The position numbers and the translations under genes are program-made. Positions 3,658 to 32,571 of a DNA stretch of 64,000 bases are shown here, piece after piece. Positions within the stretch are counted from its first letter, which is position 1. The number at the start of each line of letters is the position of its first letter. The notes below the pieces were generated by a model, which was given only the letters and a program-made list of their open reading frames with translations, was not told the DNA's origin and did no database searches. The stretch comes from Macrostomum lignano (lineage: Eukaryota): positions 434,001-498,000 of the forward strand of contig NIVC01000142.1 of the NCBI GenBank assembly GCA_002269645.1, read 5' to 3'.

Positions 3658-4540
3658 TGTGACGATTATGACGACACAGTCCCAGGATCAAATGACGAAG
3701 ACGAATAACGGAGGCAATTTGTGTAGCGGTAGCACTCATACAATGGCGTGCGATGGCGATTATTTATTATGGTTAAATAGGCTCGCTCGCTATAGATTCC
3801 AGTCGGCAATAAAGAGACTGGGCCTGATTGGAAGCTGAATCCGTAACTATGGTAAAGTTACGTAACGTAACTTTGGGCACTGCGGCAGGCAACAATAATG
3901 GTGATGGATAGCTAAATAGGCTACGGGCGATGGAGTGGCGATGATATGATGGCAATGAGATAGGATAGAGGCAGCACTCTCTCTGGCTTGAACTTGGCAG
4001 TGGCGTGGCTTGAACTTGGGCGGAGTGAACTTGGCGGAGTGAACTTGGCGGAGTGAACTTGGCGGAGTGAACTTGGGCGGAGTGAACTTGGCGAAGTGAA
4101 CTTGGCGAAGTGAACTTGGCGGAGTGAACTTGGGCGGAGTGAACTTGGCGGAGTGAACTTGGGCGGAGTGAACTTGGTGGAGTGAACTTGGCGGAGTGAA
4201 CTTGGTGGAGTGAACTTGGTGGAGTGAACTTGGCGGAGTGAACTTGGGCGGAGTGAACTTGGCGAAGTGAACTTGGCGGAGTGAACTTGGGCGGAGTGAA
4301 CTTGGCGGAGTGAACTTGGCGGAATGAACTTGGCGGAGTGAACTTGGCGGAGTGAACTTGGGCGGAGTGAACTTGGCGGAGTGAACTTGGCGGAGTGAAC
4401 TTGGCGGAGTGAACTTGGCGGAGTGAACTTGGCGGAGTGAACTTGGCAGAGTGAACTTGGCCGAGGCGGAGAGAGAGAGAGCGCGGGCCGGAAAACAAAA
4501 GAGGGTCAACCCCGGGCGCCCCAGCCAGACAGGACTGTGT
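3658..4540 (-). mobile_element. LTR-like repeat copy A (inverted partner of 4711-5199), carrying an internal minisatellite expansion
   Basis: Reverse complement aligns by eye, block by block, with 4716-5199. Confidence 0.55.
4005..4460. repeat. 14-15-bp minisatellite (GAACTTGGCGGAGT)n
   Basis: About 31 direct copies. Confidence 0.95.
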
Positions 4541-4558
4541 GACGTTGTCAGTTGAGGT

Positions 4559-4574
4559 GGCCCCGACAAGGGCC
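4559..4574 (-). other. Orphan, degenerate histone 3' stem-loop (GGCCCT-TGTC-GGGGCC)
   Basis: Minus strand reads CGCTAAAACGGCCCTTGTCGGGGCCACC versus CGCTAAAACGGCCCTTTTCAGGGCCACC downstream of H2A; no histone CDS upstream. Confidence 0.7.
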
Positions 4575-4627
4575 GTTTTAGCGAAAGCAGTGCCATATAA
4601 TGTCTGTTTTCAAGTTGGTTTTCAAGC

Positions 4628-5287
4628 CGGCCAATAGGAAAGTTGCGCATATTTTATGTTAAGTCCGGATTATGCTTTGTTGTGCGCCCACCCCAACCCG
4701 CTCGTTAACATGTAAGTCCTGTCTAGCTGGCGCGCCCGGGGTTGGCTTGTTTCTTGGTTCTTGTTTTGTTCTTGTTTACCGACCGGCGCTCTCTCTCTCC
4801 CCGCCTCGGCCAAGTTCACCCCGGCAAATTCAAGCCACGCCACTGCCCCGAGTGGGGATCACGCCACACTTCCACCGCCGCCACTTCGCGGCACTTCTCC
4901 ATAGTTCTACACCATTGCCATCATTCCTTCGCCACTTATCGCCGTAGCCTATAGCTATCCATTACCATTATTGTTGCCTGCCGCAGTGCCCAAAGTATCA
5001 TAGTTCGGATTCAGCGCCAAATCAGGCCCAGTCCCACTATTACATTGCCGACTGGGATCTATAGCGAGCGAGTCTATCTAACCATAATAAATAATCGATA
5101 ACATAACAACTACATGTAAGCCTGAGTGCTACCGCTACTACACAAATCGCCTCCGTTATTCGTCTTCGTCATTTGACCGTGTCGTCCTTAATCGTCACAA
5201 ATGATTAACGAGCGGGCTGGGGGTGGGCGCACAAGGAAAGCTTAATTTTAGGCTAGCATAAAATATGCGCGGCCTTCCTATTGGCCG
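4628..5287. mobile_element. Composite: ~85-bp imperfect inverted repeats (4628-4711 / 5201-5287) bracketing a TG...CA-bounded 489-bp LTR-like unit (4711-5199)
   Basis: Both arms start CGGCCAATAGGAA...GCGCATATTTTATG...TGTGCGCCCACCCCA.CCCGCTCGTTAA; the inner unit starts TGTAAG, ends GTCACA and has AATAAA near 5085. No TSD found. Confidence 0.55.
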
Positions 5288-6605: not shown

Positions 6606-7602
6606 TGAAGTACAATGGGGTTTCTTCCCGGTTAGGCACTTAAGGATTACCTTAAGTCTCGAGCCTCTTCAGAGGGAAGTTCTCTCAAATCTCAGTAGCG
6701 TAGGTAGTGCTGCCACCAGTTCCTTCAGGTCTCGGCCTTCGGTGAGGTGAGCTTCCCGTCGGAACGAAATAATGAAGTCAACGAACACAGCACGACGTGC
6801 AGATTTGCAGCTCAACGTATAAGGCGTCTCGTCAGCAGCACCTGCCGGGCTTGGATGGTACAGGGAGGGCTGAGTTAGCCTCTCGTAGACTTGGGTTGGT
6901 TTGGTCGGGTCTCAGTCGGAGCAATAGGAACAGAATCAATGGGCGCAAAGACTCGGACACTCGGGACTTAGTCACACGCGGACGTAGAACTCGAGGTTGA
7001 ACAGAAGGAAGACTCCTTGACGGAAACAAGGGGGAGAGGGCTCCTATTTATAGCCGGGAAATTCCCACGCTCCAGACCTCGTGACTTGTTCTATTTTTAG
7101 AACTGACGTCACTCGAGAGTCTCAGGCAGGGTACAAGCGCGCGGAAGACCTCGTGACCTGTTCTATTTTTAGAACTGACGTCACTTGAGGGTCCCCGGCA
7201 GAGTACACATGGCTGTGACTCAGTTGCTATTTTTAGCAACATGAGTCACTCCTCTCCTTAGAAAAGGGAGGGGTCCGAAAGCATGTGACTCACCCGGTAA
7301 ACAGGGCCAACGAGTGCAGTAAACATGTTTACTGCACTTTAAGACTCAAAGAACGCAAGAGCTGTCATGTGACTTGCTCACAGGACAGAGGAAAACAGGA
7401 TGGAAGCGAAACAGAGACAGCCCACAGTCGAGAGACTGAGGGCTGAGAACGGAGACGCAACAGGGCGGAAAGGGACACGGGGGGGCAACAGGCAAACGAA
7501 AAAGGGACGGGAAGCTGACCAGCGGCAGACAGCAACCCAAAGGGAGGGCAAGGGAGCGGCTGACAAGGGCGACGCCTAACAATAAACTAGCGGCTCACTA
7601 CA
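6606..7602 (-). repeat. 3' LTR (997 bp)
   Basis: Matches 15992-16987 by eye except one extra G in a G-run near 7480. Confidence 0.97.
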
Positions 7603-7614
7603 CTCTCCCCGTTC
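7603..7614 (-). promoter_or_regulatory. Polypurine tract
   Basis: Minus strand GAACGGGGAGAG immediately precedes the TG of the 3' LTR. Confidence 0.9.
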
Positions 7615-8235
7615 AAATAAAGAGGCGGAGTGAAGGCGGAGCGCGCCTTTATTTAAAAGGTAAACTGCAGAAAATAAAATTTTGATTGGCAAAAAGGTGG
7701 TAACTTTGGCAGAATAGCAGAGAAGGGGCTGGGTTAGGCCCATGATTGGAACCCTAAACGCGTGTGCGGGGCGCCTGCCCGCTTGAAGTCAGCGCCTAAA
7801 TACCGGGTTGCACAAATAACTGCAGCGCCCGTAAAAGGGATGGCAAATACAGGTAAGGGGACAAAAGAAGCCACAGTGGGCTATAAAAGCGCGGCTGGGC
7901 GAGGCCGTACTACCGCCCCATACGGTATTAATGGAGTCACACCAAAGCATGAAGGGGGGCGCCAGCCCCATGATACGCAAGAGGCGCCTAAATATGGGGG
8001 ATGCGGGAGTTCATGCAGAGCCCCGGGGTAAAAGGCAAAAGACTGGCCACAAGGGCACAAATGGTTGATGCCGAAAATGAGCACAAAGGACAAATGCCGC
8101 TCATATACGAAGAGGGGACGTAAACGGCGCGACTGCGCAAAAATTCGCACGTGCAGCGCAGGGCTGCTGAGGGCGCTAGCAAAAGGGCGCGACGAAAATT
8201 GGAGTCACCTGGGGTTTGTCAGTCCAGGGTTAAAG

Positions 8236-9611
8236 TTACTCTTGCCGGTCACAGTGGCGCACGAGATCCGGGACCTCCGGCGTCCGACCCGCCATCTGGG
8301 CCGCAATTAGCCGGGCGACGACGCGGGCCGTCTCGGGATGCGGCGGACGCCTGAGCGTCGGTGCCGCGAGCTGGGCGGCCTCGTCCATTAGCCGCTGCCG
8401 ATCCTCATCCGTAAGGGCGCGGAGACAGGCCCATCGCGGCCAGTCCGCGAGGGTTGGCAGTCGGTTCAATTGGGCGGCAGCAGTCAGCTGTTGGGCGATA
8501 AAGTACACCGCCTCAATATAGCGGTTAACGGCAGCTTGAACAGCTGGCGAAAGGCCCGGTGGCGACGATCCGTTGTCCTCGGACTCATTGTCTGATGAGT
8601 CTGGGTCGCGTGGCTCCGGCGAGTTGGGCGGTGCCGGAGGGACTGCGTTGTTAGTAGGCAGGGCCTGTCGCAGCTCGGTGGTTAGCTCCTGCAGGGTGGT
8701 CGCCTCCGAATTGTTGCCGTCAGTCTGGCAGGCGGCCTCTACTCTGCCTGGGGCCACGGGTTCTCCGGCTCGGGAACAGTTGGCAGCCAGACTTGGTCGT
8801 CGCGGGGCGGTGAAGCCGGTTCCAGTCGGAGCTCTGGCCCCGATATTCTGCAAAGAAAAACTGAGTTGGGGGCGGGCTGCGCCGACGGTTTGCTGGCGTC
8901 ATCCGACGACTCTGGCCGGGTGTCCCGAGTTTCGATCTTGGTCGATGTTGGCGTCGGCTGCCGGGGCGCGAGCTGTTGTCGAAGCTCCGCTAGGCCTTCG
9001 GCGACGACTTCGGCGGCCGACCCACCGGCCGGTCGGTACTTAGTAGTCGGGCTTAGCCCCGGGGAGTCCGGCTCCGTCAAGTCAATGAAGACGGGCGTCG
9101 GCGGTCGGGGACGCTGGCGTCTCGATCCTTGAGCCTGATCAGCCGTCGCTGCGGGCTTAGGTCTCTCGCTGCTGTGGCCCGCGGCCTCTCTAGCCTGATC
9201 CTGCTCGACTTGCCAACGGATCTCAGCGATTCCTTGAGAGATTCCGTCGGTCGATGCAGTGGCTGCCAGGCTCGATGATGGGGCGGCCGCAATACGGCGA
9301 ACAACGGGCGGGTTCTCCGAGGGCGTCCCCTCGGCACCGGCGGTCCGGTTGTGCCCCGGCCGCTGTCGCCTGCGGCGCCTAGGACGTGGCCGGCGTACCT
9401 CTAGTGGCGGTGACGGGGCTCTCTCCTCCTGAGGAAGGGTGAGCCGTAGCCGGGGAGGGATTCGGGCAACCTCCCGGTGTTCGCCCGACTCAAATTGGCC
9501 GCCGGCTGCCCCAATGGGCGGACCTGCTTCGGCCTCGTGCCGCGAGCGGCGATGGCGATTCTCCGCCGACGGCGTGCGCTCAGTGCGCTTGGCGGTACGG
9601 CGAGAGTGCAT
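8236..9611 (-). CDS. Extra 3' ORF of the Gypsy element (ORF3 or long integrase C-terminal extension), apparently split by one frameshift near 8870; unknown function
   Basis: ORFs 8739..9800 and 8236..8853 overlap and join if one C is added in a C-run. ATG at 9611 is preceded by the acceptor-like CATTTCAG. Arg-rich, Pro/Ser-rich, no signal peptide or TM segment. Confidence 0.6.
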
Positions 9612-9745
9612 TTCTGCGCTGAAATGCGTTTCGATTTGTGCGCGGATGCGGGCGGTGCGGCTAACATAAGTCTTAGCCTTAGGATTAATAATCAGCCTTT
9701 CAGGCTGCCTACGATTCCTAGCCGGCCTACCGGCATCTACAATTC

Positions 9746-12100
9746 CTACTGACGCTTCCACCGGAGTGGTGCATAGCGACGGCCCAGGGGTCTGGACCAC
9801 AGATAAAGCAGCACTGGGGCGGGAGCAGAAACGGGCGGAAAGGAAACGGCAGGCATAGACGCATCAAGAACAGGCTCATGCAAATGACATTCACCATACG
9901 GCACTGGCTCACGCCGAAGTGCACTTGCCTGGTTCGCTGGTGTCGTGACCGGTCCACCTCCTGGCTGCACCTCCGGGATCGCCAAAGGCCGGAAGTGCCA
10001 TCGGAAGGCCGGCCTTGCGTCGTAGCCGTCATCATCATCATCATCGTCGGGGTCGTCCTGGTCGTCCTCGGGAATCGGCGTCAGGGTCGCGGGTCCTGCG
10101 CTGTCGGGGACGTCGGGCGGTCGCCGACGCTTCTTCGGTTTGTCGACTTCAGGATCGGAAGTCCTCGTGTAATCGGCGTCAGGCACGAGTAGGAGGTTCC
10201 GGCGATGGACGATTAGTTCGTCTCGTCTGGCTCTCGGGTTGGGCAGTCTCCGTCGAATCTTGTAGACGACCTCGCCCTTGGGCTCGACGACTTCGTATAG
10301 GGCTTTGCGAGGTCGATGAAACTTCGCCGCCTCATCCGGTTCGAGTACCGGGTTGTTGAGGAAGACCAGATCGCCGGGTTGAAGCTTCTTGGCGGCGGGC
10401 AGGTTCGAGTAGTGCTCGTCTCGCAGTTGCTGATGCAGATGCAGGCGCTCCTTGGCTAGCTCGGTCGCCTCGTCCAGGCGACGTTGGAAGTCCTTGACGT
10501 AGTCGGGCAGGTCGGCGTACTCAGGCAGCTTCTTCAGCGCGTTGTCGATCGGGAGTCGGAAGTCACGGCCGAACACCAGGTAGTGAGGCGTGAAGCCGGT
10601 CACCGGGTGCACGCTGGAGCGGAGAGCCATCAGACAGGCTGGGAGGAAGGTGTCCCAGTCGTTGTGGTTGCGCTCGAGCAAACAGGTGAGGACACTCTTC
10701 AGCTGCTTGTTGAGGTTCTCGACTTGTCCATTGGAAGCTGGATTGTACGGTGTTGTTGTCGTATGCCGAATGCCAAACAGGTCGCAGAACTTCTTGAAGG
10801 CTGAGCCGGTGAAGTTGGTGCCTTGGTCAGTGTGGATCCAGCATGGTACACCGAACTCGGGGATGAAGCGCTCCTGCAGAAGCTTGATGACTGTTTTGGC
10901 TTTCTGGTTTCTCATCGGGTAGGCGAATGGATACTTCGACGTCGCATCGCACAAGGTCAGGATGTAGCGGTTGCCGCTCTTGCTCTTCTGCGCGATTGGT
11001 CCTACTACATCACAGTGGATTCTACCCAGAACTTCGCAAACTGGGAAGCTCTGGACCGGAACTCTCTCTCGCCGTCGCGATTTACTTTCAAGGCAAGTGC
11101 GGCACTTACTGATGAAGGTCTTGGTAGCACGGGCTAATCCGGGTCTCCAGAACCGTTCTCGTAGCCGCAGTAACGTCTTCGTCTCGCCGAGGTGTCCACA
11201 CAGTGGCGAACTGTGGAGCTCCTGGAGCACCTGGGCGTCAAGGGCCTCAGGCAGAACAACCTTTGGCGGCTGCTGGCCATCGGACAGGTCAATCAGCAGC
11301 AGGCCGTTGTCCTCCTGCAGGTTCTCGTAGTATCCGAGCAGGTTCCGCTGCTCCTTCGTCAGGCGCAACCGGGCGTCGAACTCAGGCTTCGGGGCTTCGT
11401 CCTTGACCAGGTTGAGCACGTAGCTGATGGCTCGGTCAGCGCGCTGGGCTTCAACGAACTGTTGGCGAGTCATCGGCAGCTTCAGAAAATCAGTGAGCAC
11501 AGCGCGGCATGGCTGAGGGGTCCGGATTCCCGCAGTCTCCGCTTTAATGGCTCCAGGTCGATCACACGGCACCGTCTTGTCGGCGTCAGGATTAGGTCGC
11601 TCCGAGGGACTTTGTCTCACAACGTCGGCGTACGTCCGTTGATCTCGAATCGAAGTTCTCTTCATCGCTCTCATGACAGAAGATTCCGCAGATGGAGCAG
11701 CGCGCATGCCTCCACTGCATAGCACAGGCGACTCTTGGCTGTAGGGCGGGACGCAACACGTGAAGCACGCCTCGTCGCAGGCAGCCGTAGCCGTCGGCTC
11801 AGTCGTCGTCAAAATTGGGTGAGTCTTCTCCAGCACTGGGCGGTGTCGCAAAGGGGGACTCGACTTTCCGCACAGGCGATGAGCAGCTGTCTGTCGGCCC
11901 GGGGGACAGAGCTTCGACCTTGCAGCTGGCGCGAGATTCTGGCCTCTGTCAACACGGCGAGAAATCTCAGCGAAAGGCTCGGAAGGGTTGTAGTTAAATT
12001 GCTTGCCTGGAGTTGCGTGCGGGCCGTCATCAGAAGGGCTGCTGGCGCGGTGGCCTTTGAATCTTGAGATTCCGAGACCGGAAGTCTTGGGCGTTGTCAA
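9746..12100 (-). CDS. pol: Pol C-terminal part: linker and integrase (HHCC zinc finger, DDE core, GPY/F-like domain)
   Basis: LHSSPLCGHLG...CRTC, IHCDVVGP, HTDQGTNF, SNGQVENLNKQLK, PGDLVFL motifs. Confidence 0.95.
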   Translation of the reverse strand: MTTPKTSGLGISRFKGHRASSPSDDGPHATPGKQFNYNPSEPFAEISRRVDRGQNLAPAARSKLCPPGRQTAAHRLCGKSSPPLRHRPVLEKTHPILTTTEPTATAACDEACFTCCVPPYSQESPVLCSGGMRAAPSAESSVMRAMKRTSIRDQRTYADVVRQSPSERPNPDADKTVPCDRPGAIKAETAGIRTPQPCRAVLTDFLKLPMTRQQFVEAQRADRAISYVLNLVKDEAPKPEFDARLRLTKEQRNLLGYYENLQEDNGLLLIDLSDGQQPPKVVLPEALDAQVLQELHSSPLCGHLGETKTLLRLRERFWRPGLARATKTFISKCRTCLESKSRRRERVPVQSFPVCEVLGRIHCDVVGPIAQKSKSGNRYILTLCDATSKYPFAYPMRNQKAKTVIKLLQERFIPEFGVPCWIHTDQGTNFTGSAFKKFCDLFGIRHTTTTPYNPASNGQVENLNKQLKSVLTCLLERNHNDWDTFLPACLMALRSSVHPVTGFTPHYLVFGRDFRLPIDNALKKLPEYADLPDYVKDFQRRLDEATELAKERLHLHQQLRDEHYSNLPAAKKLQPGDLVFLNNPVLEPDEAAKFHRPRKALYEVVEPKGEVVYKIRRRLPNPRARRDELIVHRRNLLLVPDADYTRTSDPEVDKPKKRRRPPDVPDSAGPATLTPIPEDDQDDPDDDDDDDGYDARPAFRWHFRPLAIPEVQPGGGPVTTPANQASALRREPVPYGECHLHEPVLDASMPAVSFPPVSAPAPVLLYLWSRPLGRRYAPLRWKRQ

Positions 12101-12193
12101 GGAGGTCTGCGTCAGCGGTGGCCTCTAGGACTTCGTCCAGGTTGGTCTCCAAGTAGCGGCAGTCGGCGTGGGCATCGCTGCAGAGGGCTGTTG

Positions 12194-12685
12194 TCACAGT
12201 GGCCTCTGGTTGTCGTCCAGGCCGGTCTCCAGGCGTTGACTGCAGCGGTGGGCGTCGTGCTGGAAGGCTGCTGGTGCGGTGGCTTCCAGGTCTTCGTCCA
12301 GGTCAGTCTCGGCCTCCGAGTTGCGAGAATGGACAGCCTTCGGGAGGGCTGCTCCGGCAGTGGCCTCGGGAGTCGCGTCCAAGTCCGGTTCCAGGTCGTG
12401 GTCGTCACCGGGTCGGGCTGCTGAACCGGGTTGCTCTAGCAGTCGGCCATGGTCGAAGAAGATCGGCGGGCCCTCCGGTCTTCTTGATAGGGCATCAGCG
12501 TTGGCGTGGTCCTTGCCTTTGCGGTGGTTGAGCTGGAAGCGGAACTCGCTTAGGCGTTCGATCCAGCGGCCTAAAATACCTGTGGCCTGAGTTTGGTTCA
12601 GTAACCACAGTAAGGCCCGATGATCGGATCGAACTTCAAACTTCTTGCCGATTAAGTAATGACGGAAATGTCGCATAGCGTCCAC
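12194..12685 (-). CDS. pol: Pol: end of RNase H plus linker (frameshifted segment)
   Basis: HYLIGKKFEVRSDHRALLWL...RWIERLSEF...H.KGKDHANADALSR, the typical Gypsy RNase H C-terminus. Confidence 0.93.
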   Translation of the reverse strand: MDAMRHFRHYLIGKKFEVRSDHRALLWLLNQTQATGILGRWIERLSEFRFQLNHRKGKDHANADALSRRPEGPPIFFDHGRLLEQPGSAARPGDDHDLEPDLDATPEATAGAALPKAVHSRNSEAETDLDEDLEATAPAAFQHDAHRCSQRLETGLDDNQRPL

Positions 12686-14871
12686 ATTGCAAGCAGCTCT
12701 TTCTTCGTGACCGTGTAGCGCTTCTCAGGATCGCGAAGTTTACGGCTAAAGAATGCAATTGGACGTTCGACGCCGTCGGATTGCAGTTGTCCAAGGCAAG
12801 CGCCTATTCGAATATCAGAGGCATCCGTGTCGAGGACAAACTTCACAGCAGGATCAGAATTAAATTCAGGCAGAGCGAGAACTTCAGTAGAACACAATTT
12901 CTTCTTCAAAGTGTCGAACGCTACCTGATGCTCGGGAGTCCAATGCTGCCGTAGGCTGCCAATGTCCTTTCGCGTCAGGGCATGCAGCGGCGCAGCCACT
13001 CCAGCGTAGCCGTCGACAAACTTGTGGTAGTAATTGGCGAGGCCTAGGAATTGTCTCAGTTGAGTAACGGACTGTGGCACGGGCCAATCACGGATCTGCG
13101 CAATCTTGTCCTCACAGGTCTTCAGGCCGTCGGGAGTCACGACGTGACCTAAATAATGCAGCTCCTTGAGGAACAAATGACACTTCTTCGGTTTCACTTT
13201 GAGGTTGGCTGCGATGATGCGCTGAAGTACAGTTCGCAAGTTATCCAGCTGTTCCTCGAAAGTCACTGAGTGCACCACGATGTCGTCCATGTAGCCAAGC
13301 GCAGTCTTTGGCGTCAGGCCGTCCAGGAGCTTATTGATGCAACGCTGAAAGCTGCCAGGACTGTCGTGGAGACCCATCGGTAGAACGTTGAAACAGAATT
13401 GGCCGCGGTCGATTACTGAGAATGCCGTCAAGTGCTGGTCGCAGTCGCGCAGCGGGATCTGCCAGAATCCTTGAGCAAGGTCCAAGCTAGAATACCACTG
13501 AGCACCACGAAGCTTCGCGAAGGTTTCCTGGATGTGCGGGAGCGGATACGGGTGATACACACACCTGTCGTTGAGAGCTCTGAAGTCGTGGACTAGTCGG
13601 ATGTTGCCGTCCTTCTTGGGCACGATGAGCATTGGCGAATTGTAGCTCGAGTAGGCAGGGCGAATGATGTGCTTCGCCAGCATCTCGTCTAGCAGGGCGT
13701 CGAGTTTGTCCTTCAGATGAGGCGGGATTCGGCGCGGTGGTAGCGCGACTGGTGTCCGGTCCTTCAAGATGATCTCGTGGGTCACCAGGTGAGTCAGGCC
13801 GGCGTCTAGCGAGTGCTTGGAGAAGGCCGCTTGACATTCGACTAGTAGATCTCGCACTCTTTGATGATGTTCTTTGGACAATTCGCTGTTGATCTCGACT
13901 TCATCTAGCCATGCTGTGCTGGACTCTTCAGAGTTCTTCGGGAGGTGCCGCACTTCAGGTTCGGGCGTCTCGCTCAAGTACATCAGGTCGGCAGTTCGGA
14001 GTGGCGCCGCAACACCAACACGGATACCGGCTTGCAGGAACACCTCGCTGTCGGCGGTGTTGACGACCTCAATGTAGCCGCGACCTTCAGGCATCGTCAT
14101 CAGAGCAGGCGCTGCTTCCAGAGCGTTGCAGCTGGGATGCAGCCTCGACTTAACCAGCTCGACAATTGATGGCGATCCTCGATTCTCAGGGTGGCCGTCA
14201 TCCAGTCTGACGGCAAGCAGCGCTGAACTTCTAGGCGGCAGGGTGCACTTCTCAGAGGTGTACACTCGGCAGTTCTGAAGCTCACGCCGCGAATAACGAA
14301 CAGGGATGCACGTGCCATTGTTGAACGTTAGCATTCCTTGAGCGAAGTCCAAGTTCTGGCAGTGCTCTCGCATAAACGATACGCCAAGCAAATTTTCACA
14401 ATCGGAGACCGTAACGAGGAATTCGGTGTCCGCGACGACATCACCGAACTCCACCGGGATGGTCACCTTACAAGCAAGCGGGAGCTGCGTCCCGTCATAC
14501 ATAGTTACGCAATCGGGAATAGCATGCGATATAATACAACGAGGCATCCGGCGTCTAATAGCGGCCCAGGTTGACGAACCGAGGAAGTTTTTCCGGCTGC
14601 CGCTGTCTAGCAAGAAAGGGACTTCTCGACTCGCAACTCGACCTGTGACGTACGGATCGGCCTCACGCGCATGGATTTTTTGATTCGGGGAGGTGTCCAT
14701 GAAACCTCCGCACTCAGCGTCGCTTACTGACGAGCGACTGTCGGACTGGGCCTTGGCGCCTGCACAGCCGACATCCTCTTCTTCTCGCGACCGTTCGGAA
14801 TCTGCCAAGTAGCCTGGGCTTGGACCTCGCGGAGGGCGGTGCCGTTGTCGCTCTCCGCCTGGCCGTTTCCC
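12652..14871 (-). CDS. pol: Pol: protease, reverse transcriptase, RNase H (in -1 frame to gag)
   Basis: FLLDSGS (aspartic protease), LDLAQGFWQI, LPMGL, YMDD (RT), FVLDTDASD (RNase H). Confidence 0.97.
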   Translation of the reverse strand, partial: GKRPGGERQRHRPPRGPSPGYLADSERSREEEDVGCAGAKAQSDSRSSVSDAECGGFMDTSPNQKIHAREADPYVTGRVASREVPFLLDSGSRKNFLGSSTWAAIRRRMPRCIISHAIPDCVTMYDGTQLPLACKVTIPVEFGDVVADTEFLVTVSDCENLLGVSFMREHCQNLDFAQGMLTFNNGTCIPVRYSRRELQNCRVYTSEKCTLPPRSSALLAVRLDDGHPENRGSPSIVELVKSRLHPSCNALEAAPALMTMPEGRGYIEVVNTADSEVFLQAGIRVGVAAPLRTADLMYLSETPEPEVRHLPKNSEESSTAWLDEVEINSELSKEHHQRVRDLLVECQAAFSKHSLDAGLTHLVTHEIILKDRTPVALPPRRIPPHLKDKLDALLDEMLAKHIIRPAYSSYNSPMLIVPKKDGNIRLVHDFRALNDRCVYHPYPLPHIQETFAKLRGAQWYSSLDLAQGFWQIPLRDCDQHLTAFSVIDRGQFCFNVLPMGLHDSPGSFQRCINKLLDGLTPKTALGYMDDIVVHSVTFEEQLDNLRTVLQRIIAANLKVKPKKCHLFLKELHYLGHVVTPDGLKTCEDKIAQIRDWPVPQSVTQLRQFLGLANYYHKFVDGYAGVAAPLHALTRKDIGSLRQHWTPEHQVAFDTLKKKLCSTEVLALPEFNSDPAVKFVLDTDASDIRIGACLGQLQSDGVERPIAFFSRKLRDPEKRYTVTKKELLAMWTLCDISVIT

Positions 14872-15899
14872 TGGTTCTGGCGCATCGGGCACTGGGTGTT
14901 GCGATGACCGGGCTGTCCGCAGTTGTAGCAGAGTATAGCTCTCTTTGGCGGGCTGGCTACCTGCTGTTGGTCACGCTGCACCAGGTGATCCAGCATTCGT
15001 TGCTGCTTCTCAATCAAGTCGGTTAGAGTCAGCAAGGCTTGGGCGGTGACGTCGGGCTTCGGGTCGCCGTCCTCCTCCCCGTCCAACATCCTAACCGGGG
15101 GTTGAGCAGGTCGGTGCGCCAATTCTTTGGCGCCTTCTAGTCGTCGTAGCTCTCGAATCGCAGCAAGAAGATTGTTCGGGCGAACCCAGTACAGCCGTTC
15201 GCGCAGATCTGGAGTCGTCCGGATACCAGCAAGAAATTGATCAGTAATCTCCTTCTCGCGGTCTTCAGGATGCATTCGAGGATATGCACGTTCACCCAGA
15301 GTTCTCAGGGCGTCAGCGAACTCTTCTGCTGACTCATTCTTGCCTTGTTGACGACGTCGCAACAGTTCTCGATACTCATCAGCACCACCATGACGGGCAA
15401 ATCGCTCAATCAGACGTTGCTTGACCTCCTCGTAGCTGGCGAAACGCGGAAGATTCATACCAAGCAAGGCTGGATACGCAGTAGCCAAATCGAGACTCGC
15501 GATGAGGTGTTGCTTCATTTCGAACGGGTCGACGATGCGCTCCATCTCGCAACGCTGCTCGAACGCGGCAAGCCAGACCTGAATGTCCTGACTTGGAGTA
15601 AACTTCACAATTTTAACTTGTTTACTCACGGGCCGCTCCATCTGCTGCTGCAGAGCTGCCATCATGGTCCTGACGTCTTGGTGCGTGATGTTCCGGCCGA
15701 TGTTGTCCAGGCCTTGCAGAAGCTCGTCTGGCGGGTCGTCGGACGCGTCGCTTCTGGCACCTCGCCTCGGCGTCGGCTGCTGACCAAAGTCGTTGATCGC
15801 TGCTGCTGCTGCGGCGGCGTCTCCGGCCGCAGGCCTCGAACTGCTGATGTGCTGATCCAGCCGGCTGCTGCACCGGCTTTCGTCTCGCTCGTTGAACAT
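14724..15899 (-). CDS. gag: Gag with C-terminal CCHC zinc knuckle
   Basis: First ATG after the PBS at 15899; capsid-like WLAAFEQRC and RRQQGKNESAEEFADALRTL segments; CYNCGQPGHRNTQC. Confidence 0.93.
   Translation of the reverse strand: MFNERDESRCSSRLDQHISSSRPAAGDAAAAAAAINDFGQQPTPRRGARSDASDDPPDELLQGLDNIGRNITHQDVRTMMAALQQQMERPVSKQVKIVKFTPSQDIQVWLAAFEQRCEMERIVDPFEMKQHLIASLDLATAYPALLGMNLPRFASYEEVKQRLIERFARHGGADEYRELLRRRQQGKNESAEEFADALRTLGERAYPRMHPEDREKEITDQFLAGIRTTPDLRERLYWVRPNNLLAAIRELRRLEGAKELAHRPAQPPVRMLDGEEDGDPKPDVTAQALLTLTDLIEKQQRMLDHLVQRDQQQVASPPKRAILCYNCGQPGHRNTQCPMRQNQGNGQAESDNGTALREVQAQATWQIPNGREKKRMSAVQAPRPSPTVARQ
14829..14871 (-). promoter_or_regulatory. -1 programmed ribosomal frameshift signal (G GGA AAC, 6-nt spacer, stem-loop)
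   Basis: Heptamer at 14871-14865 is in gag frame as G-GGA-AAC; a -1 slip gives the pol frame GKRP. Downstream GCGGAGAGCG pairs 9/10 with CGCCCTCCGC. Confidence 0.8.
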
Positions 15900-15970
15900 G
15901 TTGAACTCGTCGTAGTCGCTGGCCGATGTCGTTCTCGAAAGAGCGGTTGGCTTGGGTGTGTCGTAGTCGG

Positions 15971-15990
15971 ATCTCACCGCTGCGTCACCA
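15971..15990 (-). promoter_or_regulatory. Primer-binding site (tRNA not assigned)
   Basis: TGGTGACGCAGCGGTGAGAT begins 1 nt after the CA of the 5' LTR. Confidence 0.8.
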
Positions 15991-15991
15991 G

Positions 15992-16987
15992 TGAAGTACA
16001 ATGGGGTTTCTTCCCGGTTAGGCACTTAAGGATTACCTTAAGTCTCGAGCCTCTTCAGAGGGAAGTTCTCTCAAATCTCAGTAGCGTAGGTAGTGCTGCC
16101 ACCAGTTCCTTCAGGTCTCGGCCTTCGGTGAGGTGAGCTTCCCGTCGGAACGAAATAATGAAGTCAACGAACACAGCACGACGTGCAGATTTGCAGCTCA
16201 ACGTATAAGGCGTCTCGTCAGCAGCACCTGCCGGGCTTGGATGGTACAGGGAGGGCTGAGTTAGCCTCTCGTAGACTTGGGTTGGTTTGGTCGGGTCTCA
16301 GTCGGAGCAATAGGAACAGAATCAATGGGCGCAAAGACTCGGACACTCGGGACTTAGTCACACGCGGACGTAGAACTCGAGGTTGAACAGAAGGAAGACT
16401 CCTTGACGGAAACAAGGGGGAGAGGGCTCCTATTTATAGCCGGGAAATTCCCACGCTCCAGACCTCGTGACTTGTTCTATTTTTAGAACTGACGTCACTC
16501 GAGAGTCTCAGGCAGGGTACAAGCGCGCGGAAGACCTCGTGACCTGTTCTATTTTTAGAACTGACGTCACTTGAGGGTCCCCGGCAGAGTACACATGGCT
16601 GTGACTCAGTTGCTATTTTTAGCAACATGAGTCACTCCTCTCCTTAGAAAAGGGAGGGGTCCGAAAGCATGTGACTCACCCGGTAAACAGGGCCAACGAG
16701 TGCAGTAAACATGTTTACTGCACTTTAAGACTCAAAGAACGCAAGAGCTGTCATGTGACTTGCTCACAGGACAGAGGAAAACAGGATGGAAGCGAAACAG
16801 AGACAGCCCACAGTCGAGAGACTGAGGGCTGAGAACGGAGACGCAACAGGGCGGAAAGGGACACGGGGGGCAACAGGCAAACGAAAAAGGGACGGGAAGC
16901 TGACCAGCGGCAGACAGCAACCCAAAGGGAGGGCAAGGGAGCGGCTGACAAGGGCGACGCCTAACAATAAACTAGCGGCTCACTACA
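15992..16987 (-). repeat. 5' LTR (996 bp) with TATA box at 16438-16431
   Basis: TGTAGTGAGCC...GTACTTCA; TATAAATA on the minus strand; AP-1/CRE-like motifs upstream of it. Confidence 0.97.

Positions 16988-19909: not shown

Positions 19910-32571
<12,662 letters not shown>

Follow-up and report, generated by a model that had tools for sequence, protein, structure and literature searches.

The window analysed here, a stretch of 64,000 nucleotides of Macrostomum lignano DNA, contains a full-length young Ty3/Gypsy LTR retrotransposon on its minus strand (Table 1); its preliminary description had recognised a Gypsy element. The TG...CA LTR pair shows no difference across 996 aligned bases, and the target-site duplication, primer-binding site (PBS), polypurine tract (PPT) and gag-to-pol arrangement with the domain order PR-RT-RH-IN are those of a Ty3/Gypsy element. 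Three short motifs, sought with placement in a named clade (Mag, CsRN1, Gmr1/Osvaldo, Mdg3) in view, have no match in five supplementary files of PMC12801592. In all 13 copies checked, the AATAAA lies at -49 to -54 relative to the 3' LTR.

Table 1. Positions of the element and its features in the window
Feature	Position	Strand	Remarks
Ty3/Gypsy LTR retrotransposon	6606..16987	-	full-length, young; 10,382 bp; 4-bp target duplication
5' LTR	15992..16987	-	TATA-like box at 16438; no AATAAA
Primer-binding-site region	15971..15990	-	contains donor-like G/GT at 15978/15977
gag	14724..15899	-	one CCHC zinc knuckle
pol (PR-RT-RH-linker-IN)	9929..14970	-	single-base frameshifts in window copy; one frame in L061, L062, L080
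GC-AG intron	9619..9928	-	inside Pol frame; encodes RxxRxRRxPxR motif; excised exactly in two independent genomic copies
IN-terminal motif RPARNRRQPER	9696..9728	-	within intron
Splice acceptor	9619..9624	-	YTNCAG type
ORF3 / Pol tail	8236..9611	-	stop 8238-8236; one-base break near 8761 in window copy (sibling comparison)
Arg-rich run RRPRPRRRRRQR	9360..9395	-	NLS- or RNA-binding-like
SIM-like motif PVFIDLTEPDSP	9060..9095	-	IDLT core
TQT-like motif	8719..8739	-	candidate LC8/DYNLL site, here EAACQTD
C-terminal domain	8239..8559	-	orphan, all-helical, ~105 aa (AF2)
AATAAA	7648..7653	-	sole copy in element; 51 nt ahead of 3' LTR, upstream of polypurine tract
Polypurine tract	7603..7616	-	
3' LTR	6606..7602	-	

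The ORF of about 460 aa reported downstream of integrase, here called ORF3, is 458 aa long from the ATG at 9611 in unbroken type-A siblings, where it is in frame with Pol and follows the integrase-terminal motif. In the window copy it is split over two frames (8739-9863 and 8236-8898). The window is one base short near 9820 relative to all 11 aligned siblings and near 8761 relative to all five copies of the same type. Both breaks are private to this copy and fall inside homopolymer runs, so they are probably assembly errors. PR, RT, RH, IN and the tail form a single frame of 2215, 2206 or 2139 aa in L061, L062 and L080. The C-terminal domain of ORF3 is invariably the last part of Pol, and the tail continues for about 650 aa beyond the IN C-terminal domain as an in-frame extension of integrase of the Ty1/Ty5 kind. 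This read-through frame is preserved in 35 of the 52 called copies, across intron lengths of 311, 314 and 332 nt, and where type-III and type-A copies were examined, each departure from it is the loss of a single base, usually within a homopolymer run. An apparent lineage with a free-standing ORF3 (L070, L071 and L103, with a short intron and ORF3 out of the Pol frame) was discarded because the three share a flank and represent one insertion. L096 and L102 were likewise counted as a single case.

Motifs and fold of the ORF3 protein

Apart from its C-terminal domain, ORF3 is mostly disordered. The Arg-rich run, the SIM-like motif and the helical C-terminus that had been described are all present at the positions in Table 1. 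The first 130 aa carry a net charge of +8 to +19 in 19/19 copies, and the long Arg run occurs in only 11 of them. The SIM-like core [IV]DLT is found in 16 of the 19 copies (23/5700 shuffles), and the TQT-like pattern, a candidate LC8 site, in 14 (149/5700 shuffles). Together, the three kinds of conserved motif suggest that ORF3 encodes a nuclear regulator, and they are compatible with a nuclear anti-silencing or targeting role.

The C-terminal domain is predicted with confidence by AF2 (pLDDT 91.2, pTM 0.84). Foldseek searches of PDB and viral structures give no match to it at E<=0.001, from which fold novelty does not follow, and the best VIA-align score (Z 6.0, rmsd 3.5, 85 aligned) is in the background range for helical bundles. 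Pfam has no family for the two ORF3 pieces of the window and gives only weak, inconsistent, sub-threshold matches to 26 aligned domains (best DinB_2, 5/26, E 0.009). The best PDB sequence profile match to the domain has an E of 0.44, and the ESM Atlas offers no usable one. No known TE domain appears in the Pfam, PDB or fold comparisons. When 1.84 billion proteins were screened by profile, only three matched, all of the same ORF3 family, with no CERV or Rev among them. A word-index search for the domain among longer proteins gave 0 of 4599 candidates, which is weak evidence, and one with the database protein P0001 matched only P0001 itself and P0002. ORF3s of other Gypsy families in the same genome are unrelated to those of the window family.

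ORF3 does not resemble an env protein. Hydropathy scans agree with the earlier statement that it has no signal peptide or TM segment, both in type-A siblings (best 19-residue Kyte-Doolittle mean 0.81) and over 19 copies (best means 0.75-1.69), and Pfam, PDB profile and protein profile searches found no fusion-glycoprotein homology.

Selection and allelic diversity

Comparisons between ORF3 types give dN/dS values of 0.06-0.57 for the C-terminal domain and 0.20-0.56 for the disordered part, and open frames of 350-470 aa are retained at saturating synonymous divergence. These values, well below one, indicate that ORF3 is under purifying selection; a dN/dS near one among copies, which the preliminary description had named as fatal to its proposal, was not found between types. 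The sole same-type pair tested, in group I, has a disordered-part dN/dS of 0.49 with an interval reaching 1.18. Positive selection was rejected as the source of tail divergence because dS is inflated as much as dN: the same pairs within groups have a dS of 0.8-3.0 in ORF3 versus 0.03-0.22 in IN.

Many old ORF3 alleles sit on a homogenised backbone. About 15 alleles, 24-83% identical to that of the window, are carried on near-invariant RT and IN sequences, and in group I an identity of 0.92-0.99 gives way to about 0.5 in the first 100 nt past the acceptor. The splice acceptor is thus the border between conserved backbone and variable cassette. Backbone and ORF3 trees conflict, with L070 grouping with the window element by backbone and not by ORF3. 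Diversification between related elements combined with purifying selection is the pattern of a VANC-like protein. A variant without ORF3 also spreads, and a young copy of it (L147) has an unbroken 1754-aa pol and LTRs that match at 982/982 positions; such copies show that ORF3 is dispensable in cis. The variant that lacks the acceptor likewise lacks ORF3. Copies without ORF3 keep the GC donor as well, and it may therefore be conserved for the Pol frame alone.

Splicing at the ORF3 acceptor

The acceptor and a GC donor upstream of it are used. The joined form, in which exactly the GC-AG intron is missing from a genomic copy, occurs at three loci that represent two insertions in two subfamilies, compared with 106 unspliced donors. 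In a third insertion the same donor (9929/9928) is joined to a later, pyrimidine-rich AG, 512 nt farther along. None of nine other internal deletions has GY-AG ends, and three of the seven matches in the accompanying search proved to be unrelated DNA. The intron is 310 nt long in the window and mostly 311 or 314 nt in siblings, and its removal terminates Pol early without fusing ORF3 to it. In the homology-anchored alignment, the CAG of the acceptor and the ATG are present in 38/38 rows while the acceptor codon varies among F, S, C and Y; we rely on these rows because the search pattern behind the 52-copy tally required the AG and ATG and is circular for those letters. Exceptions are L104, from which the first AG is missing, and L117, with TAG/TTG.

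The preliminary description had proposed that a donor-like G/GTGAGA in the PBS region is joined to the acceptor-like TTTCAG before the ATG, from about 15980 to about 9616. The acceptor part of this proposal holds for both site and use, with the AG ending at 9619 and the exon beginning at 9618 rather than about 9616. The donor-like site also exists (15978/15977), but nothing shows its use: the proposed joint is absent among those listed from four runs, and the spliced genomic copies use the GC donor 310 nt upstream. Of the two forms once suggested for the product, the giant integrase tail is what the unspliced RNA encodes, and for the spliced accessory ORF the acceptor is borne out but the proposed donor is not supported.

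The acceptor may also receive a spliced leader. The host carries the M. lignano spliced leader (46 exact matches), and the site ahead of ORF3 has the YTNCAG form of a trans-splicing acceptor (motif from PMC8629364), which by itself is common, occurring 21 times in the internal region of the element. Among 20 of the 46 leader loci viewed, four continue with a GT donor and none with the ORF3 exon. Four database proteins consist of ORF3 alone and start 2-11 nt past the acceptor, although upstream of their starts the genomic frame stays open over 403-1228 codons. The models of P0001 and P0002 begin at the ATG, P0003 one codon past it and not at the acceptor, and P0004, flagged as partial, at the first whole codon past the acceptor with no upstream-exon residues. 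From the model names we infer that these models derive from a published gene pipeline (PMC5730564) in which leaders are trimmed off and transcripts are divided at sites of trans-splicing, and a start such as that of P0004 is what this procedure would produce. The P0004 boundary therefore suggests spliced-leader trans-splicing at the acceptor, an argument that depends mainly on one gene model. The pipeline also removed transcripts overlapping repeats, which biases it towards ORF3-only models.

Among the joints listed from four runs guessed to be RNA, there is no contig with a leader or intron junction, and contigs drop rare forms. A type-A contig of one such run (X1) spans the acceptor unspliced (9330-9663). 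If a leader is added, the AUG at its end would not share the ORF3 frame, whichever AG is used, and would start a short overlapping frame (8-84 codons at the first AG); ORF3 would then require leaky scanning.

Possible roles of ORF3 and comparison with known systems

Our leading interpretation, which falls just short of an even balance, is that ORF3 is a selected cassette, in frame with Pol and with a working acceptor before its ATG, that is likely expressed from its own SL trans-spliced message and encodes a predicted nuclear SUMO/LC8-binding scaffold, likely aiding the element against host silencing. Rather probably, leader addition at the acceptor together with the poly(A) signal ahead of the PPT would yield a stand-alone ORF3 mRNA, and the element would then resemble a two-gene operon. 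GC-AG cis-splicing would be a side pathway that truncates Pol and whose copies are dead ends. With somewhat less than even odds, the targets of the protein would be silencing complexes or chromatin marked by SUMO, on which it could act through its basic N-terminus, SIM, TQT motif and helical domain. Alleles could persist because rare versions escape control by the host. The fullest version is doubtful: an operon-like LTR retrotransposon whose genomic RNA is cut by the host SL machinery into a capped mRNA for an orphan SUMO/LC8-binding counter-silencing protein, of which at least 15 ancient alleles are exchanged on a single backbone as element and host compete in an arms race.

ORF3 might instead serve chiefly as a giant tail of integrase that, in the manner of the Ty1 and Ty5 tails, directs integration by binding SUMO-rich chromatin, with the acceptor mostly tuning the amount of tailed integrase. 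The preserved read-through frame, its single-base deviations and the terminal position of the domain in Pol are as expected from a tail, but a fusion needs no invariant ATG right behind an acceptor conserved at the nucleotide level, gene models begin at that acceptor and elements without ORF3 integrate, and we regard this as unlikely. Less likely again is a Rev- or CERV-like factor that is made from a spliced message and protects or exports unspliced genomic RNA. A working intron within genomic RNA, the basic N-terminus of every copy, the joint absence of acceptor and ORF3 from one variant and the precedent of Cer1 (PMC10309623) agree with such a factor. The profile search matched it to neither CERV nor any other protein, the long Arg run is missing from many copies, and a factor needed merely because of its own acceptor accounts for neither benefit nor allele diversity.

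An equally improbable alternative is that the stand-alone message arises without trans-splicing, by env-like cis-splicing from an LTR or leader donor or from an internal promoter. Group-I copies do have the GT donor-like site at the PBS, a message without the packaging region would leave no genomic retrocopy, and the ATG starts of P0001 and P0002 fit an upstream exon. The listed joints hold none of this kind, however, P0004 lacks residues of such an exon, and a promoter is unlikely to start transcripts precisely on an AG boundary. That the tail is non-functional filler with cryptic splice sites is scarcely credible, since the spread of the ORF3-less variant and the wide dN/dS interval of the group-I pair are outweighed by long open frames at saturating divergence, a confidently predicted fold and motifs far above shuffles, and the low dN/dS largely refutes it.

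The favoured cassette, known from sequence, can be compared with several systems. Cer1 belongs to C. elegans, an animal with trans-splicing. Its CERV is a novel non-env LTR-retrotransposon protein from a spliced message; the G and M domains of CERV are structured, it contains a Cys finger, and its role in export has been tested (PMC10309623; the words trans-splicing and SL1 are absent from the main text of that paper). ORF3 is likewise novel and not an env protein, and the host of its LTR element has trans-splicing, but it has no sequence similarity to CERV and is mostly disordered, in frame with Pol and multi-allelic. Plant LTR retrotransposons reportedly carry additional ORFs as extra cargo. 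In bdelloid rotifers, the ORF3s described for LTR retrotransposons encode captured enzymes (GDSL, DEDDy), TM proteins or env-like products (PMC5408684). The flatworm ORF3 shares with both the place between pol and the 3' LTR and modular exchange. Unlike the bdelloid ORF3s, it is an orphan that continues the Pol frame, and a single family holds about 15 alleles of it.

VANDALs are DNA transposons. Their Arabidopsis VANC proteins are anti-silencing factors with binding and demethylation shown experimentally (PMC5735166). ORF3, which has no homology to them and whose anti-silencing role is a prediction, is similarly an accessory protein encoded by a TE, with strong divergence from one related element to the next. 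Ty1 and Ty5 have C-terminal targeting tails on integrase. The flatworm tail resembles them in its length and disorder, in extending the integrase frame and in its basic and linear motifs; it differs in having its own acceptor, ATG and folded end domain and in that it can be absent. Errantivirus env is made from a spliced subgenomic RNA (PMC12992720). ORF3 shares its location after pol and an acceptor directly ahead of the start, without a signal peptide, TM helix or env homology. Drosophila Panoramix/PICTS is said to be an LC8-dimerised silencing factor; this nuclear protein, which is disordered, carries TQT motifs and takes part in transposon control, offers only an analogy to the predicted nuclear ORF3 protein. 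It is a host protein that silences, and no homology is claimed.

Accessory genes other than env are known from LTR elements, few of them with a mechanism, and anti-silencing factors are scarce in animals. Our literature search, with most subscription journals outside its scope, found no report of a retroelement internal gene expressed via SL trans-splicing; leader addition to retrotransposon RNAs appears only as speculation, in PMC5832876 and PMC12582326. The main text of PMC12801592, which cites an earlier Macrostomum LTR classification paper, contains neither 'ORF' nor 'splic'. If a leader is added at the acceptor, this would be a route for expressing an internal gene in which genome RNA is traded for accessory mRNA. 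A near-identical backbone with about 15 orphan-protein alleles, or none, amounts to a natural experiment, and the animal is tractable and transgenic-ready. NCBI files the ORF3 proteins as hypothetical genes of the host, and they therefore pass unnoticed into host gene counts and expression atlases.

Frame and protein of ORF3

All 996 aligned bases agree between the two LTRs of the Gypsy element. Pfam recognizes in the element a CCHC gag, RT, RNase H and integrase, together with a protease match that is sub-threshold only. The siblings share with it a long insert between RNase H and integrase, which has imperfect internal repeats (ETDLDE-like units) and no Pfam match.

Features of the element and its surroundings, in window positions
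Feature	Position	Strand	Remarks
Ty3/Gypsy element	6606-16987	minus	10,382 bp; 4-bp target duplication
LTR tandem duplication	16593-16460		~70 bp, palindromic core, upstream of TATA box
Donor proposed in the PBS region	15978/15977
RNase H-integrase insert	11500-12450		roughly 300-400 codons
GC donor	9929/9928
One-base losses	near 9820 and near 8761		runs of 5 and 4 identical bases
ORF3 acceptor	9619/9618		end at 9619
ORF3 ATG	9611		8 nt downstream of acceptor end
TTTAGGCG motif	8000-7780		3' UTR
AATAAA	7653-7648		51 nt upstream of 3' LTR, before PPT
Large tandem arrays	21300-22500 and 30070-32400		units 8-12-bp and 34-bp
Inverted-repeat arms	3683-5181		suggest a small DNA element

Every motif that the preliminary description quoted for ORF3, the cassette downstream of integrase, is found in the window sequence. 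ORF3 is split in the window copy, which is one base short of its siblings at two places. Because these places are homopolymers and other copies, too, repeatedly lack single bases at homopolymers, both are probably assembly errors. Type-A siblings, which carry the window's version of ORF3 without breaks, encode 458 aa from the ATG. A single frame extends from the protease to the end of ORF3 in L061, L062 and L080 (2215, 2206 and 2139 aa), so the giant integrase tail proposed earlier is borne out for the unspliced RNA.

Each of the 19 unbroken ORF3 copies examined is basic over its N-terminal 130 aa and has no conspicuous signal or TM stretch, and the middle of the protein is acidic and proline-rich. 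An [IV]DLT motif is present in 16 of the 19 (versus 23 of 5700 shuffles) and a TQT-like pattern in 14 (versus 149 of 5700); some of the 19 are near-identical to one another, and both patterns were picked once the alignment had been viewed. We take the former to be a candidate SUMO-interacting motif and the latter a candidate LC8 site. AlphaFold2 models the C-terminal domain as helical with confidence (pLDDT 91.2, pTM 0.84). Sequence and fold searches with this domain give no significant match, and hence none to a known TE domain of the kind that the preliminary description had set against its own reading. Among 1.84 billion proteins, a profile search returns three matches, each an ORF3 of the same family. 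The cassette is not described in the portions consulted of PMC12801592 (including five supplementary files), PMC10309623, PMC5408684, PMC5735166, PMC12992720, PMC5832876, PMC12582326, PMC7861614, PMC6607443 and PMC7264820, and a literature search by gene name finds no paper.

Splice sites and the ORF3 message

The acceptor and ATG are kept in 38 of 38 homology-anchored rows, with a differing codon at the site (F, S, C or Y); exceptions at L104 and L117 fall outside these rows. Position 9929 is joined exactly to 9618 at three genomic loci. Two of these (L096 and L102) have one flank in common and are a single insertion, and the other (L101) belongs to a different subfamily and allele. In a third insertion, the same donor is joined to a pyrimidine-rich AG that lies another 512 nt downstream. 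The stretch missing from the joined copies starts with GC and ends with AG, a type of ends seen in none of nine other internal deletions; the genome holds 106 unspliced donors. The joined copies are best read as spliced RNAs after reverse transcription, although microhomology of 3-4 nt may have helped produce them. The acceptor that had been proposed before the ATG is thus used, but the donor is the GC site, and the one proposed in the PBS region finds no support. Most copies have an intron of 311 or 314 nt, whose removal changes the frame. In the spliced form, the terminal RxxRxRRxPxR motif is gone from Pol, which runs on for 8-23 codons in most types and 59-84 in some before it stops, and ORF3 is separate.

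Four database proteins of the ORF3 family, named as M. lignano hypothetical proteins, start 2-11 nt past the acceptor, and the genomic frame upstream is open for 403-1228 codons. One of them (P0004, flagged partial) starts with the first whole codon past the AG. According to the part of PMC5730564 consulted, the M. lignano annotation trimmed leaders and cut transcripts at trans-splice sites, and an excerpt of PMC8629364 gives YTNCAG as the top trans-splice acceptor motif. The sole AATAAA of the element holds the same position in every one of 13 copies checked, among them the ORF3-less variant. The LTR has no such signal, so read-through would be needed for full-length genomic RNA. Together, the gene-model starts, annotation practice, YTNCAG motif and AATAAA position suggest an operon-like ORF3 mRNA, and we infer that trans-splicing at the acceptor is somewhat favored. 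Several findings count against a stand-alone mRNA: one contig from a presumed-RNA run spans the acceptor unspliced, one gene model begins past the ATG, and the leader AUG would lie out of frame with ORF3. The annotation filter also dropped transcripts overlapping repeats, which counts against the gene-model argument. Nor is a joint at the acceptor among those listed for contigs of four presumed-RNA runs, which likewise counts against the stand-alone mRNA. Env-style cis-splicing or an internal promoter could supply the message instead.

The M. lignano spliced leader has 46 exact matches in the host genome (reversed control, 0). Together with the names of the database proteins, this marks the host as M. 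lignano or a very near relative. Sixteen of 20 leader-bearing loci viewed (L121-L138) are not SL RNA genes, and several of these have downstream sequence in common and resemble repeats with a captured leader. The short motif TTTAGGCG occurs once or twice in the 3' UTR of each of 13 copies checked, the ORF3-less one included, within sequence that is divergent between copies; it is a candidate packaging or regulatory signal.

Selection, exchange and possible role of ORF3

Scoring of 123 candidates gives 91 genomic places that match the last 107 aa of ORF3, with identities as low as 27%. Among fetched copies whose RT is matched over its full length, identity to the window's RT is mostly 95-100%. 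At 75% identity the 26 aligned domains group into 15 clusters, and at 60% into 11. We computed dN/dS over 16 ORF3 pairs for the domain and disordered part separately. In the 12 pairs for which dS could be estimated and dN was not zero, the domain ratio is 0.06-0.57 (three others are saturated, and the same-type pair L066/L065 has dN = 0). The disordered part gives 0.20-0.56 in 15 pairs (one saturated), with an interval reaching 1 for L066/L065 only. These ratios are well below the value near 1 that the preliminary description had named as telling against a functional ORF.

Same-group pairs of different types have an ORF3 dS of 0.8-3.0 versus an IN dS of 0.03-0.22 (not computable for 5 of the 16 pairs). 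Mean identity among seven copies of group I, the window's backbone group, falls from >0.9 to ~0.5 directly past the acceptor and is back up at the PPT. A homogenised backbone therefore receives old cassettes by recombination, and rapid amino-acid change does not by itself account for the divergence. In nine fetched loci the donor is kept and a short non-coding 3' region takes the place of the cassette; one of the nine has identical LTRs and a 1754-aa pol without breaks, so ORF3 is accessory in cis. Splice use has been demonstrated for this orphan accessory cassette, which is real and under selection and shows an unusual exchange of alleles.

In the most likely mechanism, genome and tailed Pol would both come from unspliced RNA, and a share of the RNA would be diverted through the acceptor to make free ORF3 protein. 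Solely from its motifs, this protein is predicted to be a nuclear scaffold that acts on SUMO-marked complexes of host silencing or chromatin, and host pressure may maintain its allele diversity. While joined to integrase in the unspliced frame, ORF3 could instead be a tail for targeting integration; as a separate protein, it could be a Rev/CERV-like export factor.

The ORF3-less variant (L105-L108, L143-L147) is young and has an LTR type of its own and a 550-nt 3' region. In the presumed-RNA run X5, a contig of the ORF3-less form has a summed depth of 36 versus 3-5 for the window's type. One group-II copy (L078, L079) is interrupted within its pol linker by a solo LTR that belongs to the window's group.
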